Assembly: GCA_049323435.1 (NCBI GenBank)
Contig: JBMOMX010000032.1
Coordinates: 18,555-82,554 of the forward strand
DNA from: Pseudomonadota bacterium
GTDB taxonomy: Bacteria > Pseudomonadota > Alphaproteobacteria > UBA11222
Direction: 5' to 3'
DNA: 64,000 bases
Each line of letters opens with the position of its first letter. Position 1 is the stretch's first letter. Positions 18,028 through 48,175 of this stretch are shown here, piece after piece. The notes beneath the pieces were generated by a model. That model saw nothing but the letters and a program-made list of their open reading frames with translations. It had not been told where the DNA came from and searched no databases. A program made the translations under genes and the position numbers.

Positions 18028-18645
18028 ATGAGATCAGCACGGACGCTAGCAGGCTTTGCCGCTCAACTCAATTGCGCCGCACGGCCTGAGGACACGCGGC
18101 CTGCACTGCCGCGCCTGTGGCTGCTAAGCGATGCGCAGCGCCTGCCGGATCCCGGCAGCGCCATCCAGCGTCTGCCTGCCGGTGCGGGATTTATCTTTCG
18201 CCATTATGAATATCATGGCCGCGAAAGCCTGGCGCGGCAACTGCTGCTTCTATGCCGCAAACGCCGGATAATTTTTCTGCTGGCGGGTGACTGGCGTATG
18301 GCGCTACGGGTGGGCGCTGACGGGGTGCATCTGCCGGAACAGCTCGGCCATCAGGCGCGCGCCATACGCAATGTCAGGCCCAATGCACTGGTAATGGTAG
18401 CAGCCCATTCGGCGCGCGCTATATCCCGCGCCTGTCAGCAGGGCGCAGACGCCATATTGCTGTCGCCGGTATTCGCGACCGCAAGCCATCCCGGCGCGGC
18501 GGCGCTGGGTGCGGTGCGGTTTGCAAAACTGCGCCACGGCGCGCACCTGCCGGTGATTGCGCTGGGCGGGATTAACCCGCACACGGCGCGGCGTCTGCGC
18601 GGAAGCGGCGCGGCCGGCATTGCCGCCATTGGCGGGCTGGCTTAG
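18028..18645 (+). CDS. thiE: thiamine-phosphate synthase-like (TMP-TENI family) protein
   Basis: 205 aa; LWLLSD...then LSPVFATASHPGA...LPVIALGGIN resembles the ThiE C-terminal phosphate-binding region. The start codon is uncertain. Confidence 0.5.
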   Translation: MRSARTLAGFAAQLNCAARPEDTRPALPRLWLLSDAQRLPDPGSAIQRLPAGAGFIFRHYEYHGRESLARQLLLLCRKRRIIFLLAGDWRMALRVGADGVHLPEQLGHQARAIRNVRPNALVMVAAHSARAISRACQQGADAILLSPVFATASHPGAAALGAVRFAKLRHGAHLPVIALGGINPHTARRLRGSGAAGIAAIGGLA

Positions 18646-25025: not shown

Positions 25026-27617
25026 ATGTCACGATATAATCCCAAGCAATCTGAACAGAAATGGCAGGACCGCTGGCATAAGGCGCAGGCCTTTCGCGCG
25101 GTGCCTGATGCCCGTGAAAAATATTATGTGCTGGAAATGTTTCCCTATCCGTCCGGGCGGATTCACATGGGCCATGTCCGCAATTACACCATGGGCGATA
25201 TTGTCGCGCGCTACAAACGCGCCCGCGGATTTAATGTGCTTCACCCGATGGGCTGGGACGCATTTGGCATGCCTGCTGAAAATGCCGCGCGTGAACGCGG
25301 CGTGCATCCCGCCATCTGGACCTATGAAAATATCGCCACCATGCGCAGCCAGTTAAAGGCGCTTGGCCTGTCGATAGACTGGACGCGCGAACTGGCGACC
25401 TGCGATGCGCAATATTACGGCCATGAACAGCGGATGTTTCTGGATTTTCTGGAGGCAGGCCTGGTGACCCGGAAAGAATCCTCGGTCAACTGGGATCCGG
25501 TGGATGGCACCGTGCTGGCCAATGAGCAGGTCATTGACGGGCGCGGCTGGCGTTCCGGCGCGCTGGTGGAACAGCGCCTTCTTACCCAGTGGTTTTTTAA
25601 AATCACCGCCTATGCGGATGAATTACTGCTATCGCTGGACACGCTGGAGCGCTGGCCCGAAAAAGTACGCCTGATGCAGAGCAACTGGATCGGGCGTTCC
25701 GAAGGGATGCGGATACGCTTTGCGCTTACGGGGGCGCACGCCGCAAGCCTGCCGGGAGATGGCGTGCTGGAAGTATACACCACGCGCCATGATACGATTT
25801 TCGGCATGAGCTTCTGCGCCATTTCGGCGGATCATCCGATTGCGCTGGCGCTGGCGTCACGCGATCCGGCCATCGCTGCCTTCTGCAAGCAATGCCGTGA
25901 GGGCGGCGGCACGGCGGAAGTGCTGGAACGCGCGGAAAAGCTTGGATATGACACGCAATTAAAGGTACGCCATCCCTTTGTTGCGGGACGCGAGGTTCCG
26001 GTTTATATCGCCAATTTTGTGCTGATGGGATATGGAACGGGCGCTATTTTCGGCTGCCCGGCGCATGATCAGCGCGATCTGGATTTCGCCCGCAAATATG
26101 CCCTGGAAGTTCTGCCGGTTGTCGCCCCTGTTGGAGAGACAGACATCCTTATCATTAATGATGCGTATACGGACAATCAGAACGGGCGTATGGTTAATTC
26201 CGCCTTTCTGAATGGCATGGCCATCGCCGAGGCGAAATCCGAAGTTTCAAAACGCCTGAGCGCAATGGGCGCCGGCGAAGCGGCGGTAAGTTTCCGGCTG
26301 CGCGACTGGGGCGTTTCACGCCAGCGCTATTGGGGCTGTCCGATTCCGGTTATTCATTGCGCGGAGTGCGGTGTTGTGCCGGTGCCGCGCGATCAGCTGC
26401 CGGTCACCCTTCCGGAAGATGTCACATTCGACAGGCCGGGAAATCCGCTGGCGCACCATCCATCATGGAAACATGCGCCCTGCCCGAAATGCGCCAAGCC
26501 GGCGATTCGCGAAACAGATACCTTTGATACCTTTGTTGATTCGTCCTGGTATTTTGCACGCTTTTGCAGCCCGCATGCCGCCGTGCCGGTTGACCGCGCC
26601 GAAGCCGATTACTGGATGCCCGTCGATCAATATATTGGCGGTGTCGAACATGCCATTCTGCATCTGCTTTATTCGCGCTTTTATACCAGGGCCATGAAGC
26701 AGACCGGCTATGCAAGGGACAGCGAACCATTCAGCGGACTGTTTACCCAGGGCATGGTGACGCACGAAACCTATAAGGACCAGACCGGCGCCTGGCTGTT
26801 TCCCGAGCAAATTATCAAGCGCGATGGCGCCGCTGTGCACAAAGATACCGGCGCGCCGGTGCAGATCGGCAAGATCGAATCCATGTCCAAATCAAAGCGC
26901 AATGTGGTTGATCCCGAAAATATTATTGCGCATTACGGGGCCGACACGGCGCGCTGGTTTGTGGTTTCCGACACGCCGCCCGAACGGGACATTGAATGGA
27001 CCGAAGCAGGCGTTGAAGGCGCCTGGCGCTTTACCCAGCGCGTCTGGCGTCTGGTCAATGACGCCTTGACGCTGGTGCCGCCGCCCGGCGATGCGGTGCA
27101 AGGCGGGACTTTTGGCCCGCTCGGCCAGGCGCTGCGGCAGGCTTCGCATCAGGCAATTGCCGCCGTGACCGAGGATATTGAGCGGTTTCACTTTAACCGT
27201 GCTGTGGCGCGGATTTATGAATTATCCAATCATATCAACAGCTTTATGTCGCAGGGGACGGAGGAACCAGGGGCAGGCCTTGCATTGCGTGAGGCGCTGG
27301 AAAGCCTGATTCTGCTGTCGGCACCCATGATGCCGCATCTGGCTGAGGAATGCTGGGCCCAGCTTGGGCATACACAGATGGCGGTGGATCAGCCCTGGCC
27401 TGTCGCGGACCCGGAGCTTACCCGCACCGATACGGTTCTGGTCATTGTTCAGGTGAATGGCAAGCGGCGCGGTGAACTGAATGTTCCGCCGCAGACGCCT
27501 GCTGCCGAGCTTGAGGCCAGGGCATTGGCCCTGGAGGGGATCACCCGCCATCTGGAGGGGAAACCGGTGCGCAAGGTGATTATCGTGCCGGACCGGATTG
27601 TCAATGTCGTGGCATAG
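25026..27617 (+). CDS. leuS: leucine--tRNA ligase
   Basis: 863 aa; HMGH motif ([15 protein letters not shown]), KMSKS motif (SMSKSKRN), and an editing-domain insert. Confidence 0.95.
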
Positions 27618-28133: not shown

Positions 28134-29549
28134 ATGATTGTCAAAGGCGCAAGTTTGGAACAATTATTGAAGCGCCCGGCCAGCGCCCTTCGCGCCGTGC
28201 TGTTTTATGGACCCAATGAGGGGCGTGTCCGGGAACATGCCCAGCGCGTGACCCAGGCGATTGTCGCGGATATACATGACCCGTTTCGCATTGCCAATCT
28301 GACCGGAGCCGCGCTTAAGGAAGATCCTGCACTTCTGGGTGATGAGGCGGCTGCGATTGCCATGACCGGCGGGCGCCGGGTAATACGCCTGAGCGGGGCC
28401 GGGGATGCCCTGCTTCCGGCATTTCTGAATTTTCTGCAAGACCCCAAAGGCGATTCGCTGATCGTCATGGAGGCGGGAGCACTGACCAAAACCTCCAAAT
28501 TGCGCAAAACTTTTGAGGACAGTCCGTTATGCGCAATCGCTGCCTGTTATGAAGACAGTGCAGCCGATCTGTCGGCAATGGTCACTGATCACTTGGCGCA
28601 GAACGGGCTGAGGATTACTTCAGATGCTAAGGACTATCTGCTGCAATGTTTGGGCGAAGACCGCATGGCCAGCCGACAGGAACTGGACAAGCTGGTTTTA
28701 TATAAGGGATTTTGGACACGCCAACGGAACAGTAGAGATATCAAAGATGTCATGGCAGGCGTCGGTAGCCAGGATACCGGCGATATCCCAGGTATCGGAG
28801 ATATACCTGACACAATAGATAGCCATGATGGCGCAGATATCCTGGCTATCGCGGATAGCAGAGGTATCACCGGTACCAATACTATCCTGGATTGCACGGA
28901 TATCCATGATGCCATAGCTATCGCAGATGTCTTAGAGACCCCTGACATCAGGGGTATAAAAGATACCGGCGGTATCATGGATGTCCATGACCGCTCTGAT
29001 AGCCATGATAGCTCTGATAGCCATGATGGCCATGATGGCTATGATGGCCATGATCTCCGGCATGGCATGGCGTCCAAGGATAATCTGGTGCGCTTGCAGG
29101 ATGTGCAGGCCTGTATTGGCGATGGTGCCGTTCACAGTCTCGATGAAATTTGTGACTGCCTGTGTCTGGGCGATCCTGAAGCGCTGGATGCGCATATTCA
29201 GCGCGCTTTTGCGGGCGGGGTTTCCCCTATCACTATCTTGCGTGCGCTCAGCACCCATCTGATGAAACTGCAACTGGTACTCGCGGCGCAGGCGAAGGGC
29301 AGTTCTGCCGATATGGCGCTGCGGGTGCTGCGGCCGCCTTTGCATTTCTCAAGAATCACGGCATTCCGCCGCATGCTGCCTATGTGGAATACGCAGTTGG
29401 CCGCACATGCGCTGGAACAGGTGCTGCGGACCGAGGCGGCCTGTAAAACCACCGGCGCACCGGATTTCAGCCTGTGCAGCCAGGCCCTGCTTCAGCTGGC
29501 GCATCTGCCGCGCCGCGCCCGGACGGCCCCCCCGGCCGGGCTGAGTTAA
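28134..29549 (+). CDS. holA: DNA polymerase III subunit delta, carrying a ~120-aa low-complexity D/H/I/G-rich insertion
   Basis: The N-terminal ~195 aa and the C-terminal ~150 aa align with HolA architecture (LRAVLFYGPNEG..., C-terminal helical domain). The protein is 471 aa against a typical length of about 340 aa. The excess is a repeat-encoded segment at roughly 28725..29085. Confidence 0.75.
   Translation: MIVKGASLEQLLKRPASALRAVLFYGPNEGRVREHAQRVTQAIVADIHDPFRIANLTGAALKEDPALLGDEAAAIAMTGGRRVIRLSGAGDALLPAFLNFLQDPKGDSLIVMEAGALTKTSKLRKTFEDSPLCAIAACYEDSAADLSAMVTDHLAQNGLRITSDAKDYLLQCLGEDRMASRQELDKLVLYKGFWTRQRNSRDIKDVMAGVGSQDTGDIPGIGDIPDTIDSHDGADILAIADSRGITGTNTILDCTDIHDAIAIADVLETPDIRGIKDTGGIMDVHDRSDSHDSSDSHDGHDGYDGHDLRHGMASKDNLVRLQDVQACIGDGAVHSLDEICDCLCLGDPEALDAHIQRAFAGGVSPITILRALSTHLMKLQLVLAAQAKGSSADMALRVLRPPLHFSRITAFRRMLPMWNTQLAAHALEQVLRTEAACKTTGAPDFSLCSQALLQLAHLPRRARTAPPAGLS
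28725..29085. repeat. degenerate in-frame coding minisatellite inside holA (gatatc / gatagccat / gatggccat units)
   Basis: AT-richer than the flanks. Repeated GATATC and (gat[ag]gc[ct]atgat) units encode ...DIPGIGDIPDTIDSHD...SDSHDSSDSHDGHDGYDGHD. All six frames stay open across it, the usual signature of a simple repeat. Confidence 0.7.
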
Positions 29550-30433
29550 AACTGGCCCTGAGCCGGATTGGTCAGCAATCGCTGATAGACATCCTCAAGC
29601 TGTTCCAACGATTTATATTCGATGGAAATGACACCTTCCAGAAAGCCCCGTGGCGAGATGGTCACCTTAAGCCCAAGCCCGTCCGCGATCTGTTTTTCCA
29701 GCGCCAGCAGATTGGGATCTTTTATCAGCGGGGGTTTTTTAGCGCCGGAGGGTTTGCGTCCTTTTGCCAGCGCCTCGGCATCGCGCACCGACAGCTTGCC
29801 TTTGACAATCTGTTGCGCCAGCGCTTCGGGATCAGACGCTGTGATCAGGGTGCGTGCATGTCCCGCGGAAAGGCGGTTATCTTCCAGCATCGCCTGGATG
29901 GATTCAGGCAGCGCCAGCAGCCGCAGCATATTGGCGACATGGCTGCGGCTTTTGCCCACCACGCGGCCGACATCCTCCTGCGAATGATCAAATTCATCTA
30001 TCAGCCGGGCATAGCCGCGTGCCTCATCCATCGGGTTCAGATCTGCCCTTTGAATATTTTCAATCAGCGCCAGTTCCAGGCTTTCGGCATCGGTCAGATC
30101 CTTGACCAGAATCGGCACCTCATGCAGACGCGCCAATTGTGCCGCCCGCCAGCGCCGTTCCCCGGCAACAATTTCATAATGCTCGGCCAGATCGGGTACC
30201 GGACGCACCAGAATAGGTTGCAAGACGCCCTTTTCCCGAATGGAATCGGTTAATTCCTTCAAAGCGGCATCGTCAAATTTTTTGCGCGGCTGAAAATGAT
30301 TGGGGCGCAGATTGCCCACCGGGATATGTTGCGGGGTCCGCGAAGGCATGACGCGCCCAAAAGGTGAGCGTTCCTCGCCCAGCAACGCGGACAGTCCACG
30401 CCCCAGCTTCTGTCTTCTGATTTCGTCACTCAT
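29546..30433 (-). CDS. parB: chromosome partitioning protein ParB
   Basis: 295 aa; ParB box GERRWRAA, an HTH region, and the N-terminal KLGRGLSALL. Confidence 0.9.
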   Translation of the reverse strand: MSDEIRRQKLGRGLSALLGEERSPFGRVMPSRTPQHIPVGNLRPNHFQPRKKFDDAALKELTDSIREKGVLQPILVRPVPDLAEHYEIVAGERRWRAAQLARLHEVPILVKDLTDAESLELALIENIQRADLNPMDEARGYARLIDEFDHSQEDVGRVVGKSRSHVANMLRLLALPESIQAMLEDNRLSAGHARTLITASDPEALAQQIVKGKLSVRDAEALAKGRKPSGAKKPPLIKDPNLLALEKQIADGLGLKVTISPRGFLEGVISIEYKSLEQLEDVYQRLLTNPAQGQF

Positions 30434-30461: not shown

Positions 30462-31313
30462 TCAGGCGGCTTTTGCCTGGCGCTCCTGCCGGAGAATTTC
30501 TCCAGCAAGTTTTATATAGGCCCGGCTGCCTGCGCAATGCATATCATAGATCAGCACAGGCTTTCCGTAAGAGGGCGCTTCTGAAACCCGCACATTTCTG
30601 GGTATCACCGTGTCATAAACTTTTTTACCCAAAAATCCGCGCACATCCAGGGCCACCTGATCCGAAAGATTATTGCGGGAATCAAACATGGTCAGGACAA
30701 TGCCCTGAATTTCCAGCAGCGGATTCAAAGTGTCACGTACCATATCGACGGTGCGTAATAATTGGCTCAACCCTTCCAGCGCGAAAAACTCACATTGCAA
30801 CGGCACCAGAATCGAATCTGCCGCCGCCAGCGCATTGATCGTGAGCAAAGAAAGTGCGGGCGGGCAATCAATCAGAATATAGCTAAAGGGAAGCTGCCCT
30901 GCTTGCGCCGATTGTAACAGCATATCCCGCAGGCGAAAATTCCGCCGGGGCAGGTTTATCAATTCCAGCTCCGCACCGGAAAGATCGACCGAAGATGGCA
31001 GCACGCTGAGACCCGGAATGGAAGAAGCCTGCACCGCCTGCACCAGATCGGCCTCACCCATCAGCACTTCATAGATGGAACATTCCCGTGCCTGCTGGCT
31101 GACCCCCAAACCCGTGCTGGCATTACCTTGCGGGTCCAAATCAATCACCAGCACCCGCTCGCCAACCGCCGCCAATGCGGTGCCCAGATTAATTGCGGTT
31201 GTGGTTTTCCCCACCCCGCCTTTCTGATTGGCAACCGCAATCAGACGTGCGCCGCCAAGGTTTAATGTTTCACGTGAAACAGGCAAAGGTCGCGATACAG
31301 GAAAATCAGACAC
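30462..31313 (-). CDS. parA: chromosome partitioning ATPase ParA (Soj)
   Basis: Deviant Walker A KGGVGKTTTAINL. The annotated 5' end overlaps a parS site, so the true start may be downstream of 31313. Confidence 0.9.
   Translation of the reverse strand: MSDFPVSRPLPVSRETLNLGGARLIAVANQKGGVGKTTTAINLGTALAAVGERVLVIDLDPQGNASTGLGVSQQARECSIYEVLMGEADLVQAVQASSIPGLSVLPSSVDLSGAELELINLPRRNFRLRDMLLQSAQAGQLPFSYILIDCPPALSLLTINALAAADSILVPLQCEFFALEGLSQLLRTVDMVRDTLNPLLEIQGIVLTMFDSRNNLSDQVALDVRGFLGKKVYDTVIPRNVRVSEAPSYGKPVLIYDMHCAGSRAYIKLAGEILRQERQAKAA
31266..31281. promoter_or_regulatory. parS centromere site (perfect 16-bp palindrome TGTTTCACGTGAAACA)
   Basis: Exact match to the canonical parS palindrome, inside the annotated 5' end of the parA ORF. 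Confidence 0.8.
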
Positions 31314-33983: not shown

Positions 33984-33999
33984 TGTTTCACGTGAAACA
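33984..33999. promoter_or_regulatory. parS centromere site (perfect TGTTTCACGTGAAACA)
   Basis: Second exact copy, in the mnmG-mnmE intergenic region, abutting the mnmE stop codon. Confidence 0.8.
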
Positions 34000-43516: not shown

Positions 43517-44541
43517 TGTTTCACAAACTGTACCAGTTGCGCTACATTTTCAGGCGGCGTCTGCGGGACAATGCCATGTCCCAGATTAAAGATAAACCGT
43601 TGCGGTCCCATCATTGTCAAAATCCGTTCCGCTTCCTGCAACATAGTTTTACCGCCGCACACCACTAACAATGGATCAAGATTACCCTGTACCGTCAGTT
43701 TCGGTTGCAGCCTTTCCCTCGCAAATTGCAGTGGTAATGTGCTATCCATACTGATCGCATCTATGCCTGTATGCAGGGCATAATCCTCATATAATAAACC
43801 CGCGCCTTTTGGAAAACCGATAATCGGAATTTCCGGAAAGACAGCACGTATCCGCGTAATAATTTTCTTTGCCGGTTCGATACACCAGCGCTGAAATTCT
43901 CCCTCCCGCAGCGCGCCTGCCCAGCTATCGAAAATCTGTAATATCTCAGCCCCGGCTTTAACCTGCCCGATAAGATATTCTGCCGTCACGTCTATCAGAA
44001 TATCCATCAACATCGCAAAAGCTTGGCGGTCCTGATAAGCCCAAAGCCTTGCTGCTGCCTGATCCCGGCTGCCTTCACCTGCAACCATATAGCTGGCAAC
44101 AGTCCAGGGAGCACCGGCAAAACCGATCAGACACACATCCTCCGGCAGACGTTGGCGCAATAATTTCACCGTTTCATAAACCGGCATCAGATGTGCGGCT
44201 GCACCTTCCGGCTTCAGTAATGCCAGGTCCTGGCGTGACTGAATCAGAGGCGACAGAAGCGGCCCCAGCTTTTCTTCAAACCGCACCTGCTGCGACAAGG
44301 CATCGGGTATCACCAGAATATCAGAAAACAAAATTGCCGCGTCAAAACCAAACCGCCGGATCGGTTGTAAGGTCACTTCAGCCGCCAGTTCAGGCGAATA
44401 GCATAAATCCAGAAATGATCCGCCCTTCGCCCGCACCGCTCGATATTCTGGCAAATAGCGCCCGGCCTGGCGCATCAACCAGACAGGCGGACGCTGCAAT
44501 TTCTCGCCGCGCAAGGCGCGTAATAATAATTTTTGGCTCAT
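43504..44541 (-). CDS. hemE: uroporphyrinogen decarboxylase
   Basis: 345 aa; N-terminal PPVWLMRQAGRYLPEYR signature. Confidence 0.9.
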   Translation of the reverse strand: MSQKLLLRALRGEKLQRPPVWLMRQAGRYLPEYRAVRAKGGSFLDLCYSPELAAEVTLQPIRRFGFDAAILFSDILVIPDALSQQVRFEEKLGPLLSPLIQSRQDLALLKPEGAAAHLMPVYETVKLLRQRLPEDVCLIGFAGAPWTVASYMVAGEGSRDQAAARLWAYQDRQAFAMLMDILIDVTAEYLIGQVKAGAEILQIFDSWAGALREGEFQRWCIEPAKKIITRIRAVFPEIPIIGFPKGAGLLYEDYALHTGIDAISMDSTLPLQFARERLQPKLTVQGNLDPLLVVCGGKTMLQEAERILTMMGPQRFIFNLGHGIVPQTPPENVAQLVQFVKQWQA

Positions 44542-44877
44542 TTACTGGATAATTCCTGCTGATGTCAGCTCACCCCGGTTTTCCACACTCTCTTTTAATC
44601 TATTTATATTTATAAAAAAGGATGAAGTGGTAGTAGATGGCCTGAATAGAAGGGATAAAATTATATCCCGCTTTTGTTCGTTTTTCCGCTCCTGAAAGTA
44701 TCAGGCCTGCAGCCGGGATTCCGCTTATCACCCGTGATTCACAGACTGGGAATTTAGTTATTCCTGATCTATTATCCCCCATGTGAAAAGTCCGCAAAGT
44801 CAGGATGTTTTTCCGATGCGCCGCATTAGGCCTGTTTATTCACTGGATTCACCTGATTCACAGCCTATGCTGGTTCA
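44542..44877. other. putative chromosomal replication origin (oriC), hemE-type as in Caulobacter Cori
   Basis: A 336-bp divergent intergenic region between hemE (-) and the DUF299 gene (+). DnaA-box-like 9-mers: TTTTCCACA (one mismatch to TTATCCACA), TGATTCACA twice, TTATCCCCC, TTATCACCC, TTATTCACT. AT-rich tract ttttaatctatttatatttataaaaaag. Gene-strand orientation flips at this point. Confidence 0.6.
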
Positions 44878-45741
44878 ATGACTGAAATGACCGCACCTTC
44901 ATCGCCCCGGCTGGCTACCTATTTTCACCTGCATTTGGTTTCCGATGCGACCGGTGAAACCCTGAATTCCGTTACCCGGGCGGCTGTAGCGCAATTTGAC
45001 AGCGGTATTCCCATTGAACATACCTATGCGCTGGTACGCACTACCCGCCATCTTGACCGTGTTTTAAGCCAGATCGAGGATATGCCGGGAATTGTGATTT
45101 ATACGCTGGTAAATTACGATCTGCGCGACATGCTGGAACAACGCTGTGCGGAATTACAGCTACCCTGTCTTTCCGTGCTGGATCCCGTTGTGCAGATCAT
45201 CGGCACTTATCTTGGTTCGGAAATTTCGCACCGGCCTGGCGGACAGCATAGCCTGACGCCGGAATATTTTCAGCGCATTGAAGCGCTGCAATATACTATG
45301 GCGCATGATGATGGCCAATCGCTGCATGATCTGCATTCTGCGGATATCATTCTGCTCGGCGTAAGCCGCACCTCCAAAACGCCAACCTGCATCTATCTGG
45401 CCAATCGCGGATTAAAAGCTGCGAATATTCCTATAGTCCCGAATATTGCCTTGCCGGCCTCACTGCCTGATTTGAAAAAACCGCTGATCATCGGCCTGAC
45501 AACCAATCCCGACAGGTTGATTCAGGTGCGCCGCAACCGGCTTTTATCCCTGAACGAGAATGACGAGACCAGCTACACGGATCTGGATATAGTGATGGAG
45601 GAAGTGCGCTATGCAAGACGCCTTTTCGCCCAGTATGGCTGGCCGGTCATTGATGTGACCCGCCGCTCCATAGAGGAAACGGCTGCGGCCATTCTGAATC
45701 TGTTTTCCAGCCGCGCCAGCGGTAAGACCGGTGCATTATGA
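44878..45741 (+). CDS. PEP synthetase / pyruvate,phosphate dikinase regulatory protein (DUF299 kinase/pyrophosphorylase)
   Basis: 287 aa; YFHLHLVSDATGET N-terminus and a P-loop GVSRTSKT. This gene family flanks Cori in Caulobacter. Confidence 0.8.
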   Translation: MTEMTAPSSPRLATYFHLHLVSDATGETLNSVTRAAVAQFDSGIPIEHTYALVRTTRHLDRVLSQIEDMPGIVIYTLVNYDLRDMLEQRCAELQLPCLSVLDPVVQIIGTYLGSEISHRPGGQHSLTPEYFQRIEALQYTMAHDDGQSLHDLHSADIILLGVSRTSKTPTCIYLANRGLKAANIPIVPNIALPASLPDLKKPLIIGLTTNPDRLIQVRRNRLLSLNENDETSYTDLDIVMEEVRYARRLFAQYGWPVIDVTRRSIEETAAAILNLFSSRASGKTGAL

Positions 45742-46589
45742 GCATTCCTGTGCTGCGTGCCGGAATTGTCGGCTGGCCGGTCAGCCATTCACGTTCACCT
45801 CTTCTGCATGGTTATTGGCTACGCAAATATGCCATTTCCGGAACTTATGAGCGCATACCGATCGCGCCGGAGAATTTTGCCGTCAATTTCCGCGCCCTTG
45901 CCGGTCAGGGTTTTAGCGGCGTCAATGTCACCATACCGCACAAGCAAGCTGCCCTGGCATGTTGCGATGCGCTGGACGCCAATGCAAAAAGACTGGGTGC
46001 GGTGAATACAGTGCGGATCAAGGATGGGCAATTTTACGGTTCCAACACGGATGGTTTTGGATTTATGGAAAATCTGCGCCTGGGCGCGCCGGACTGGAAG
46101 CCGCAGGCCGGACCGGCAGTGATCATCGGGGCTGGCGGTGCCGCCCGTGCTGTTATTGCCGCGCTCTGCGATGCCGGGGTTCAACGCCTGTACCTGTTCA
46201 ACCGCACCCGTGCACGCGCGGACCGGCTGGCCGCTGATCTTGGCGGCCCGATCATCACAGCGGACTGGGCGGAATTACCCGGCACGCTGCCCGATTGCGC
46301 TTTGCTGGTGAATTGTTCAAGCCTCGGCATGGCGGGGCAACCGCCGCTGGAAATTTCACTGGAGAATCTCCATCCGCGCGCCACTGTCACCGATCTGGTC
46401 TATACGCCGTTGATCACAGCTTTGCTGCGCATGGCGGCGGCACGTGGAAACCCCGTCATTGACGGGCTTGGCATGCTGATACACCAGGCGCGGCCCGGTT
46501 TTGCCGCATGGTTTGGGCGCATGCCCGAGGCAGATGACACGCTGCGCAATCTGCTGCTGGCGGATATTGAAGGGGCAAAAGGACTATAG
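45738..46589 (+). CDS. aroE: shikimate dehydrogenase
   Basis: 283 aa; GWPVSHSRSPLLH...VTIPHK...NTDG motifs. The start overlaps the upstream stop (ATGA). Confidence 0.85.
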   Translation: MSIPVLRAGIVGWPVSHSRSPLLHGYWLRKYAISGTYERIPIAPENFAVNFRALAGQGFSGVNVTIPHKQAALACCDALDANAKRLGAVNTVRIKDGQFYGSNTDGFGFMENLRLGAPDWKPQAGPAVIIGAGGAARAVIAALCDAGVQRLYLFNRTRARADRLAADLGGPIITADWAELPGTLPDCALLVNCSSLGMAGQPPLEISLENLHPRATVTDLVYTPLITALLRMAAARGNPVIDGLGMLIHQARPGFAAWFGRMPEADDTLRNLLLADIEGAKGL

Positions 46590-46699
46590 TCCTAGAGCCC
46601 ATATATTAAATGCAGATAATATATGCATTAAAATCAATTGTTTATGCCCAAAAAATCAAATAGACATATTGCTGTTTATCTATTTTAGAAAGCTCCGCG

Positions 46700-48175
46700 A
46701 TGCAGCCTATTGGCACTCCAGAAATCAGGCAGCGAATTGAACGGGATAACCCGTGGTGGGCCAACGCCGATTTAGAAATTTTGGAAGCCAAATATCAGCG
46801 GCGTGTTTATTTCCCCTCATTCAAAGCATTAGCGCTGAACTTTGACGTGCGGCGCGCGGCGATTCTTCTTGGCCCCCGGCGCGTAGGCAAGACTGTAATT
46901 ATTAAGCAATTAATTCACGAAGCAATACAGGACGGTATCGATCCAAAACAAATTCTCTATGCAAGCATTGACGCTCCTATTTATTCTGGAATCTCTCTCG
47001 ACAAATTTATGGAATTCCTGCCAACCGCATCAAGAGACAAGCGCAGCGTGGTGGTTTTTGACGAAATCCAATATTTAAGGGACTGGGAAATCCACATGAA
47101 AGACCTGGTGGATAACTATCCGAGAACCAAGTTTATCGCATCTGGATCAGCCGCTGCCGCGCTTCGTTTAAAGAGTCGAGAGTCCGGAGCAGGGCGATTT
47201 TCCGAGTTCATGTTGCCGCCTCTTACATTCTATGAGTTCTTAAAATTTATTGGAGATGACGAAAAACTGATTTCAGAAAATGGTCCGGGTCAATATGAGG
47301 CAAAAGATATAGAAGCGCTTAATTCCAGATTTGTAGATTATCTGAATTTTGGGGGCTATCCAGAGGCCGTACTCAATGAAGAAGTCAGACGGAATGCAGA
47401 ACAATTTATCAGAAGCGACATCATTGACAAAGTATTGCTCAAAGATTTGCCAAGCCTTTACGGAATAAGTGATATCCAGGGCCTCAATAAATTATTTTCA
47501 TTCCTGGCGTATAACGCGGGCTCGGAAGCAAACCTCGAAAACATATCCAAAGAGTCCGGCCTGGCAAAGCCGACTATAAAAAAATATATCGAATATCTGG
47601 AAAACGCATTCCTGATCCTCAAGGTGTCGACAGTGGATGAAAACTGCCGGACTATGAAGCGAGAGCGCAATTTTAAGATTTACCTGAATAATCCATCAAT
47701 GAGAGCGGCGCTTTTTAAGCCTGTCGGAATTGAAGAGCAGGAAAAAATTGGTCACCTCGCGGAATCAGCTATTTTCTCGCAATGGCAACACGCGCCGGGA
47801 TTTCAGAGATTAAGATATGCGCGTTGGCGCAATGAGGGCGAGGTGGATATTGTATACCTTAGGCCTTCCGATGAAAAACCGTTGTGGATTGGCGAAATTC
47901 GATGGTCAGACAGAGTGAAAAATCAATTTGGCGAACAAACAAAGTCGCTATCAACATTGCTGAAAAATCATCCAACCATAAATGCGGCAATTCTTACATC
48001 GAAAACAGTCCATTCATTGAACCGCGAGCTTGAAGGCAGACACTTTGAGATTTGGCCAAGTTCACTTTATTGTTACAGCGTAGGAAGAAATATCACAGTA
48101 GCTCTTGACCAATTAGGGAGCGGGCGTTCCAGGAACCAGGCATATCAAATAAAGTATAAGGAAAATAAACCATGA
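46700..48175 (+). CDS. AAA+ ATPase of the AAA_14/DUF4143 (COG1373-like) family; likely horizontally acquired
   Basis: 491 aa; N-terminal NPWW motif, Walker A GPRRVGKT, Walker B VVFDEIQ. The gene and its upstream 110 bp are visibly AT-richer with different codon usage (AAA, ATT, TTA frequent). It sits between aroE and coaE, which are usually adjacent or separated only by maf. Confidence 0.7.

Follow-up and report, generated by a model that had tools for sequence, protein, structure and literature searches.

The 64,000-nucleotide stretch of DNA analysed here (the window; positions 18,555 to 82,554 of contig JBMOMX010000032.1, assembly GCA_049323435.1, from an alphaproteobacterium of the GTDB lineage UBA11222) carries at 28134-29549, on the plus strand, a holA gene encoding a DNA polymerase III delta subunit of 471 amino acids. 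Canonical relatives of this protein are 339-372 residues long, mostly about 345, and the surplus is a contiguous, repeat-derived segment lying between the N- and C-terminal domains of HolA. We consider it likely that this segment is a long-lived, hypervariable coding minisatellite, driven by replication slippage and located in the hinge of the delta subunit, where it encodes a tolerated, possibly entrenched, polyanionic tether. In the assembled sequences, the array changes length in steps of 9 nt, diverges more than the synonymous sites of its flanks, differs by whole units between strains and, in one otherwise identical background, differs as a block.

A tandem nonamer array in the hinge of HolA

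The protein belongs to the HolA (delta) family by sequence, fold and genomic context. The curated HolA equivalog model TIGR01128 matched it with 139.7 bits (1.3e-40; cut-off 80), in two stretches that flank an unmatched middle corresponding to the insert, and NF004165 matched a C-terminal stretch (aa 337-456). When compared with solved delta subunits, the family profile matched those of Bacillus subtilis (3zh9_B, 9.9e-12) and Escherichia coli (1jqj_C, 1.7e-10). An AlphaFold (AF2) model built from an 84-sequence alignment has the three-domain clamp-loader fold outside the insert, and its best Foldseek matches were the B. subtilis delta subunit (3zh9) and E. coli delta (8giy_A, 1jr3_D and 1jqj_C). 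The gene order leuS-lptE-holA, convergent with parB-parA, is the alphaproteobacterial arrangement, and this synteny is kept in relatives. The protein corresponds to NCBI entry MFZ5835974.1, save for a later called start.

Domains I and II occupy residues 1-192 (28134-28709, plus strand), as seen from the alignment to canonical HolA and a predicted local distance difference test score (pLDDT) above 90, and end in a conserved LDKLVLYKG. Domain III, the collar domain, starts with LVRLQDVQACIGD and extends over 29085-29546 (plus strand), where pLDDT is mostly above 90 and where the C-terminal stretches of TIGR01128 and NF004165 and the alignment to 3zh9 fall. Between these, alignments and pLDDT delimit a clade-specific insert of residues 193-317 (28710-29084, plus strand) in the loop at the domain II/III hinge. 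The original prediction, which was made from the DNA letters alone, had set 471 residues against a usual length of about 340 and placed the surplus at 28725-29085, between the two HolA domains; this position is close to that given by the alignments, and the repeat-derived nature of the surplus was confirmed. In canonical relatives the hinge loop has 3-10 residues, occasionally 17-27. Its length is thus already variable in ordinary HolA, which marks it as a naturally permissive site.

The core of the insert is an array of 36 uninterrupted nonamer (tripeptide) units at 28737-29060 on the plus strand, as defined by the codon table, the nonamer logo and the slot codon counts. Its consensus GAT-ATC-NNN is read as [D/G/A]-[I/T/V/S/G/A]-x, with no register break across the 36 units: slot 1 holds Asp, less often Gly or Ala, slot 2 holds Ile, Thr, Val, Ser, Gly or Ala, and slot 3 can hold any residue. 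Three more degenerate units follow the core array, up to 29087. This constant-period, head-to-tail arrangement is that of a coding minisatellite or variable-number tandem repeat (VNTR). In a repeat search, all start-to-start spacings of the main families (D1-D3) were multiples of 9, and the pattern GATAGCCATGATRGC (with up to two mismatches) had 10 matches in the window, 9 of them in the array, compared with 0.59 expected by chance. Tandem Repeats Finder detected solely a near-perfect 3' tract (28997-29054; period 9, 6.4 copies, 85% matches). This young tract, with the units DSH DSS DSH DGH DGY DGH, is placed at 28998-29054 on the plus strand on the basis of that detection, an excess of direct k-mer repeats and its alleles. 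As had been noted at the outset, the insert is AT-richer than its surroundings, with a GC content of 0.50 versus 0.586 in the remainder of holA. The additional claim that all six frames are open across it proved incorrect: within 28725-29085 there are 20 stops in the sense +2 frame and 4 in the +1 frame, with 8, 1 and 1 in the antisense frames. In ten relatives examined, the frames across the array are likewise not all open.

Clade-wide inheritance from a single locus

A search of 5.8 billion proteins for HolA relatives returned approximately 39 clusters of 377-497 residues with an insert at the same site, after which the canonical proteins of about 345 residues were ranked. A tree was built on 342 flank-only columns, and in it the 38 insert-bearing sequences form one clade with zero insert-free members; the sister sequences (P0040-42, 345-348 residues) are without the insert. 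Nine GTDB species genomes (L001-L009), all of them uncultured metagenome-assembled genomes labelled 'Alphaproteobacteria' or 'Pseudomonadota', carry the insert in conserved synteny. Their LeuS proteins are 71-82% identical to that of the window, compared with 57-62% in outgroups such as Zavarzinia and Haematospirillum. Across the clade, flank synonymous sites are near saturation (approximately 50% third-position mismatch). On these comparisons, the array is a clade-wide, inherited feature as opposed to the recent or isolated insertion first assumed. The alignment of orthologues thus shows a segment that is typical of the lineage, but with no conserved length: across clusters the insert ranges from 40 to 146 residues, a 3.6-fold difference.

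No second copy of the array was found in the 64-kb window or in the nine 7-9-kb orthologous loci. This bears on a possibility raised in the original prediction, that of a selfish expansion, if this is taken to mean a dispersed palindromic coding element (similar to a Rickettsia palindromic element, RPE, or a miniature inverted-repeat transposable element) inserted into holA. The array does have a palindromic core, is read in frame and sits in an unstructured loop of an alphaproteobacterial housekeeping gene, all features shared with RPEs as these are described in PMC2996958 and references therein. However, the dispersed copies typical of RPEs are lacking at the loci above, the array is monophyletic and vertically inherited, and it consists of tandem 9-bp units, a unit size that makes membership of the RPE family, with its stand-alone elements of approximately 100-150 bp, implausible. 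We regard a dispersed element as a very improbable origin of the array.

Searches beyond HolA gave similar repeats in other contexts. A phmmer search of 1.84 billion representatives with the insert alone was insensitive, as it left the known HolA relatives unrecovered, and yielded one unrelated (D-I-K/R)n protein. This sole match, P0121 (660 aa, metagenomic), contains a long (Asp - Ile/Val/Tyr/Ser - Arg/Lys)n tripeptide array at residues ~260-460, which indicates that Asp-periodic tripeptide repeats also arise independently elsewhere. A metagenome scan for GATAYC-N3 x3-GAT produced at least 120 matches, of which those listed (L085-L204) are all generic perfect 9-mer microsatellites (DTSDTS..., DTPDTP..., DTG, DIK etc.); holA was not among the matches listed, which says little on other genes of the lineage. 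Such (GATAYC-NNN)n microsatellites are common in metagenome contigs of widely differing GC content, probably derived from different domains of life.

Length turnover between close strains

Length differences between near-identical proteins are mostly multiples of 3 residues. The most pronounced case is that of P0014 and P0028, with flanks 99.4% identical and inserts of 96 and 45 residues respectively; 24 residues separate P0004/5 from P0007 (98-99% identical) and P0024 from P0025 (97.9% identical). In the window's own cluster (12 members at ≥98% identity from NCBI, JGI, ENA, Logan and MetaClust), alleles with 0, -1 and -2 units occur in the 3' tract (P0124, P0126, P0127, P0128, P0129 and P0130), and length is constant over the older part of the array, where isolated point substitutions are the only changes. 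Judged by these alleles, the near-perfect 3' tract is the currently active VNTR segment. Close strains thus differ in copy number by whole units, as in a VNTR, albeit on short-read assemblies, and the suggestion that length may vary between strains was borne out. Among other nucleotide sequences compared with the window, L081 has 5 additional units (+45 nt) and L084 has 1 (+9 nt) among other gaps. An excess of direct k-mer repeats over column-shuffled arrays was found for the window and L007 (p ≤ 0.004), more weakly for L002 (p = 0.03-0.05), and for none of the other arrays, which implies that most units are old.

Repeats are prone to mis-assembly in short-read metagenomes, and an assembly artefact or a mis-called fused open reading frame (ORF) could in principle mimic such an insert. 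However, the array is the same to within 0-2 units in the 12 cluster members from the different sources, and a single frame spans both HolA halves in 38 of 38 clusters. The probability of an artefact is negligible, and this earlier concern can be set aside.

A divergent holA allele in an otherwise identical background

Two further sequences, L081 (GCA_036732665.1) and L082 (an ENA contig), are nearly identical to the window outside a 1.08-kb patch (28307-29384, plus strand; defined by sliding comparison) centred on the array. Outside the patch there are 3 mismatches in approximately 5,000 nt upstream and 0 in about 500 bp downstream; at the protein level, identity is 99.9% for LeuS and 100% for both LptE and ParB. 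Within holA, the mismatches per 250 nt are 5, 12, 27, 27 (plus a 45-nt gap) and 5, giving a total of 76 substitutions and a 45-nt (5-unit) insertion in L081/L082, all confined to holA. Of the substitutions that lie neither in the array nor elsewhere in the insert, 16 of 24 are at third codon positions, and transitions account for 23 of the 29 non-array substitutions versus 23 of 47 within the array. This third-position and transition bias suggests an old allele filtered by selection, as opposed to a fresh mutation shower. Divergence between the window and L081 is approximately 3-fold higher in the array (48/351, 13.7%) than at flank third codon positions (16/333, 4.8%). The patch of ~1.1 kb looks like a recombinational allele replacement, i.e. 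a homologous import centred on the array.

Predicted disorder and protein-level alternatives

The AlphaFold model has pLDDT values above 90 in the three delta domains and below 50 over most of residues 214-312, a region mostly without secondary structure (no DSSP elements). Counted over 117 residues, with the three trailing units included, the array contains 26 Asp, 1 Glu, 3 Lys and 4 Arg residues, and is strongly net negative. The insert is accordingly predicted to be an intrinsically disordered, low-complexity charged linker, and a disordered loop is what the original prediction had proposed to look for in a structure prediction. The product is predicted to be a normal delta subunit, in which a long, disordered tether of polyanionic character connects the N-terminal half (including the beta-binding domain I) to the collar domain.

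The same stretch had first been described as His/Asp-rich, with a metal-binding or regulatory function in mind. The Asp component of that description stands, as Asp is periodic throughout the array; the His component does not, with 8 His residues, all of them in slot 3 and 6 of them in the species-specific 3' part (28980-29051). It is this 3' tract, reading DSHDSSDSHDGHDGYDGHD in the window, that gives the metal-binding module its appeal. However, no part of the array is younger than this tract, which is itself polymorphic in copy number, an allele of 91% identity has DGKDRMDIHDIQATYAVADTSDTSD in place of part of it, and relatives have other residues in slot 3, with His making up just 19 of 206 slot-3 residues across 10 sequences. 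A His/Asp metal-binding or regulatory module is largely refuted by this non-conservation, and we hold it to be highly unlikely.

A less remote alternative, which partly overlaps with the explanation we prefer, is that the insert is a functional acidic disordered module that selection maintains for some task in the clamp loader. Candidate roles include a DNA-mimicking or auto-inhibitory polyanion, an entropic spacer setting how far the beta-clamp 'wrench' domains can reach from the collar, and a docking surface for SSB or other partners. Retention of the insert in 38 of 38 clusters, over LeuS identities down to 71% and in the face of a high indel rate, with a minimum of 40 residues, speaks for such a role. 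So does the constancy of slot 1, which is Asp, Gly or Ala in 97% of 351 units, with acidic residues rare in slot 3; the divergent, array-centred allele in an otherwise identical genome may equally reflect selection on array variants. On the other hand, length varies over the full 3.6-fold range, unit number differs among strains at least 98% identical, and slot 3 is without information. Neither a conserved linear motif in the insert nor a Pfam or NCBIfam domain matching it (in whole-protein scans) was found. A selected acidic module is a possibility that we consider doubtful on balance.

A slot-specific rule at silent positions

The repeat unit is conserved at the nucleotide level in a manner the peptide does not require. 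The logo of 206 Asp-initiated units from 10 sequences reads G-A-T(80%)-R-N-C(89%)-N-N-N, with information contents of 1.28 and 1.34 bits at positions 3 and 6, respectively, and of 0.01-0.14 bits across positions 7-9. Over 351 in-register units from 11 species, the silent positions are T3 in 75% and C6 in 91% (64-85% and 85-96% per species, respectively, in all species), compared with 21-26% T and 25-31% C at third positions of the flanks. Ile is encoded by ATC in 93 of 98 cases in the array versus 54 of 169 in the flanks (p = 2e-26), and Val by GTC in 44 of 47 versus 47 of 199 (p = 1e-19). For Gly, the GGT:GGC ratio is 43:10 in slot 1 and 3:37 in slot 2 (p = 3e-13), and because the choice of codon for the same amino acid depends on the slot, neither amino acid nor tRNA preference explains the rule. 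Mismatch rates over eight species pairs follow the same pattern, being lowest at position 6 (0.13), 0.32 at position 3 and 0.45-0.50 at positions 7-9, compared with 0.34 at flank third positions. A general codon-pair or context bias was rejected: across 79 other ORFs from clade members, ATC accounts for 35% of D-I dipeptides and ACC for 32% of D-T dipeptides.

The core of the consensus, GAT|ATC, forms a perfect palindrome, and the arrays are self-complementary. Compared with dinucleotide shuffles, the array RNA of the window folds with z = -6.8, and all 11 arrays fall between -3.4 and -8.3, whereas the 5' flanks are at approximately 0. Synonymous recoding with flank codon usage weakens the folding in 10 of 11 arrays (z ≤ -1.9, to -6.4). 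Column-shuffled arrays, however, fold as well as the real ones (z -2.2 to +1.2), and Rfam gave no match in the window; a specific conserved RNA structure was rejected on these grounds. Mini-hairpins between adjacent units (core - N3 loop - core), maintained by quasi-palindrome correction, are unsupported: no covariation was found between position 5 of a unit and position 2 of the next (0.421 versus a null of 0.422), nor between position 4 and position 3 of the next unit, and the local single-stranded DNA hairpins of the array are weak (z -1.0 to -2.8). The dyad symmetry and self-complementarity of the arrays are generic and without specific structure.

A number of other readings were also rejected. 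Segment inversion or template switching, as the source of the strand-symmetric GNT|ANC pattern, would leave inverted k-mer matches, yet these do not exceed the column-shuffled null in 10 of 11 arrays, and the codon frequencies of slots 1 and 3 lack reverse-complement symmetry, which also argues against inversions. A conserved antisense ORF was rejected because the arrays contain 0-3 stops each in the codon-mirrored antisense frame, and in the window this frame is broken. Searches for DnaA boxes and parS sites were empty within the array, so that it is not an array of either.

These data define what can be said for and against upkeep of the array as a nucleic-acid element in addition to its peptide, i.e. 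a DNA- or RNA-level function or drive inside the hinge-coding part of an essential replisome gene. Self-complementary mRNA could slow ribosomes between domains II and III, with effects on co-translational folding or assembly, or could stabilise the transcript; alternatively, a GAT|ATC dyad every 9 bp could form a protein-bound array in a parS/ParB-proximal region. In favour are the slot-specific synonymous choice, kept in 11 of 11 species and absent from the same dipeptides elsewhere, the strong folding of all arrays and its weakening upon recoding, and the proximity of perfect parS sites, 2.2 and 4.9 kb away. Against it are the equal folding of column-shuffled arrays, the lack of covariation, the weak hairpins, and the absence of a match to Rfam or to known binding motifs. 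We consider such a nucleic-acid role unlikely. If true, the repeats could serve as a binding array of periodic dyads close to the parS centromere, could make translation pause between the delta halves or could be a slippage substrate that sustains itself, and the 1.1-kb divergent allele in an identical background would reflect selection for array variants. T3 and C6 may be maintained either by selection (for mRNA compaction, a binding array or otherwise) or by a slippage-related drive.

A model for the origin and maintenance of the array

The explanation we favour, that of a slippage-driven coding minisatellite, would run as follows. At the root of an uncultured clade of Alphaproteobacteria, a 9-bp-unit array would have expanded once in the variable hinge loop that links the AAA+ lid (domain II) to the collar (domain III), with vertical inheritance since. 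Replication slippage between units, in a 9-nt register, would produce the length changes, and recombination would occasionally swap the array. As holA is essential, the survivors would be limited to in-frame, stop-free variants that keep the Asp periodicity. The two delta halves would be joined by a disordered polyanionic tether of 40-146 residues that is tolerated at a surface hinge and whose exact sequence is largely irrelevant. The lack of any sampled clade member without the tether suggests entrenchment, and the tether is probably entrenched. Finally, in addition to selection on the protein, some constraint or drive at the level of the nucleotides may hold T3 and C6 and with them the palindromic core GAT|ATC.

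Several points weigh against this explanation. Slippage combined with protein-level filtering leaves the conserved silent positions 3 and 6, beside random positions 7-9, unexplained. That the tether is dispensable or neutral is something we infer, and its disorder is a predicted property; retention in every cluster despite frequent deletions, with a minimum still at 40 residues, argues for some function. The length differences are taken from metagenomes assembled out of short reads, a process in which repeats can collapse. In addition, units are mostly old, as most arrays show no direct-repeat excess over column shuffles.

Genomic neighbourhood of holA

The holA stop codon (29547-29549) overlaps that of the convergent parB ORF (29546..30433, minus strand) within a TTAA; in L083, unlike in the window, holA and parB do not overlap. 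Two HolA C-termini occur in the population, ...RTAPPAGLS (471 aa) and ...RTARPG (468 aa), as a result of a small indel near the 3' end (window 29500-29549 compared with L083 and cluster members). Upstream, the TTG start of an lptE-like ORF (PF04390 in relatives), at 27598-27617, overlaps the final 20 nt of leuS, which suggests translational coupling across leuS-lptE-holA. A search of the NCBIfam models gave no match for the LptE-like protein.

Two perfect 16-bp parS consensus sites (TGTTTCACGTGAAACA) are located at 31266-31281 and 33984-33999, the first inside the 5' end of parA; approximately 0.19 matches at up to 3 mismatches would be expected by chance. These sites place holA and its array approximately 2-5 kb from centromere-like sites of the chromosome. 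Around 44000-48000 of the window, GC content falls to approximately 0.50 and GC skew turns from negative to positive, with a cumulative-skew minimum, and this region, approximately 16 kb from holA, may be a replication origin. DnaA boxes, counted over the window as a whole, gave 13 matches compared with 8.8 expected.

Comparison with known systems

The delta subunit opens the sliding clamp, and the collar and AAA+ modules are mechanically coupled through its domain II/III hinge. An entire lineage that tolerates or needs a floppy polyanion of 40-146 residues at this hinge would constitute a natural experiment on hinge slack. Variable linkers between the folded modules of essential proteins are familiar from the C-terminal linker of FtsZ, which is long in Alphaproteobacteria, and from the disordered linker of SSB. 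The HolA linker resembles these in that it varies in both length and sequence, with composition and length seemingly weightier than sequence. In contrast to the HolA array, however, neither the FtsZ nor the SSB linker is a regular tandem array, nor is either known to follow a slot-specific synonymous-codon rule. The rule in the HolA array implies that the DNA is shaped by more than the encoded peptide and overall codon usage, and makes the holA locus a good test bed for mutational drive versus selection in coding repeats.

The Ser-Asp (SD) repeats of the staphylococcal Clf/Sdr proteins consist of dipeptide units with an 18-bp DNA consensus, and are found in secreted adhesins. The HolA array likewise is Asp-periodic and short in unit, with a codon-level consensus, a variable copy number and the character of a flexible stalk. 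In contrast to the SD repeats, it has a tripeptide unit and is part of a cytoplasmic replication protein. The variability of the array may be of practical use as a strain-typing marker for these uncultured bacteria in metagenomes. Literature searches turned up no specific report of an insert in HolA or of an acidic linker in the delta subunit.

Palindromic repeats read in frame offer a further comparison. PARCELs (2010, PMC2996958) are 25-residue amphipathic units (DUF285/TIGR02167) of surface and membrane proteins that spread horizontally. The HolA array is similar to these in being a variable number of tandem coding repeats with DNA dyad symmetry and partly open antisense frames, and dissimilar in its tripeptide unit and vertical inheritance; the Pfam and NCBIfam scans found neither DUF285 nor TIGR02167. 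The Rickettsia palindromic elements and the Wolbachia protein-coding palindromic repeats (Ogata et al. 2000, 2005; Claverie & Ogata 2003, cited in PMC2996958) are, in the account given there, dispersed, multi-copy and stand-alone, with several dozen codons each. As with these, palindromic DNA is read in frame in an alphaproteobacterial housekeeping gene, at a non-structured surface segment that the host protein tolerates; unlike the elements so described, the HolA array is confined to a single locus, is built from tandem 9-bp units and has no other copies detected.

A close parallel is with prokaryotic low-complexity regions born of short-repeat slippage, described as transient in the main and as characteristic of families that are young and evolve quickly (Persi et al. 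2023, PMC10120016). In common with these regions, and with bacterial coding VNTRs, the HolA array is in-frame, short in unit, expanding and contracting, and fast-evolving, with slippage and disorder both probable. It differs from them in occurring in an old, essential, single-copy replisome gene, and in being long-lived across a clade while still hypervariable. The array would thus be a clear example of a repeat-derived low-complexity region that, within an essential single-copy gene, combines great age with hypervariability, where such regions are usually called transient.

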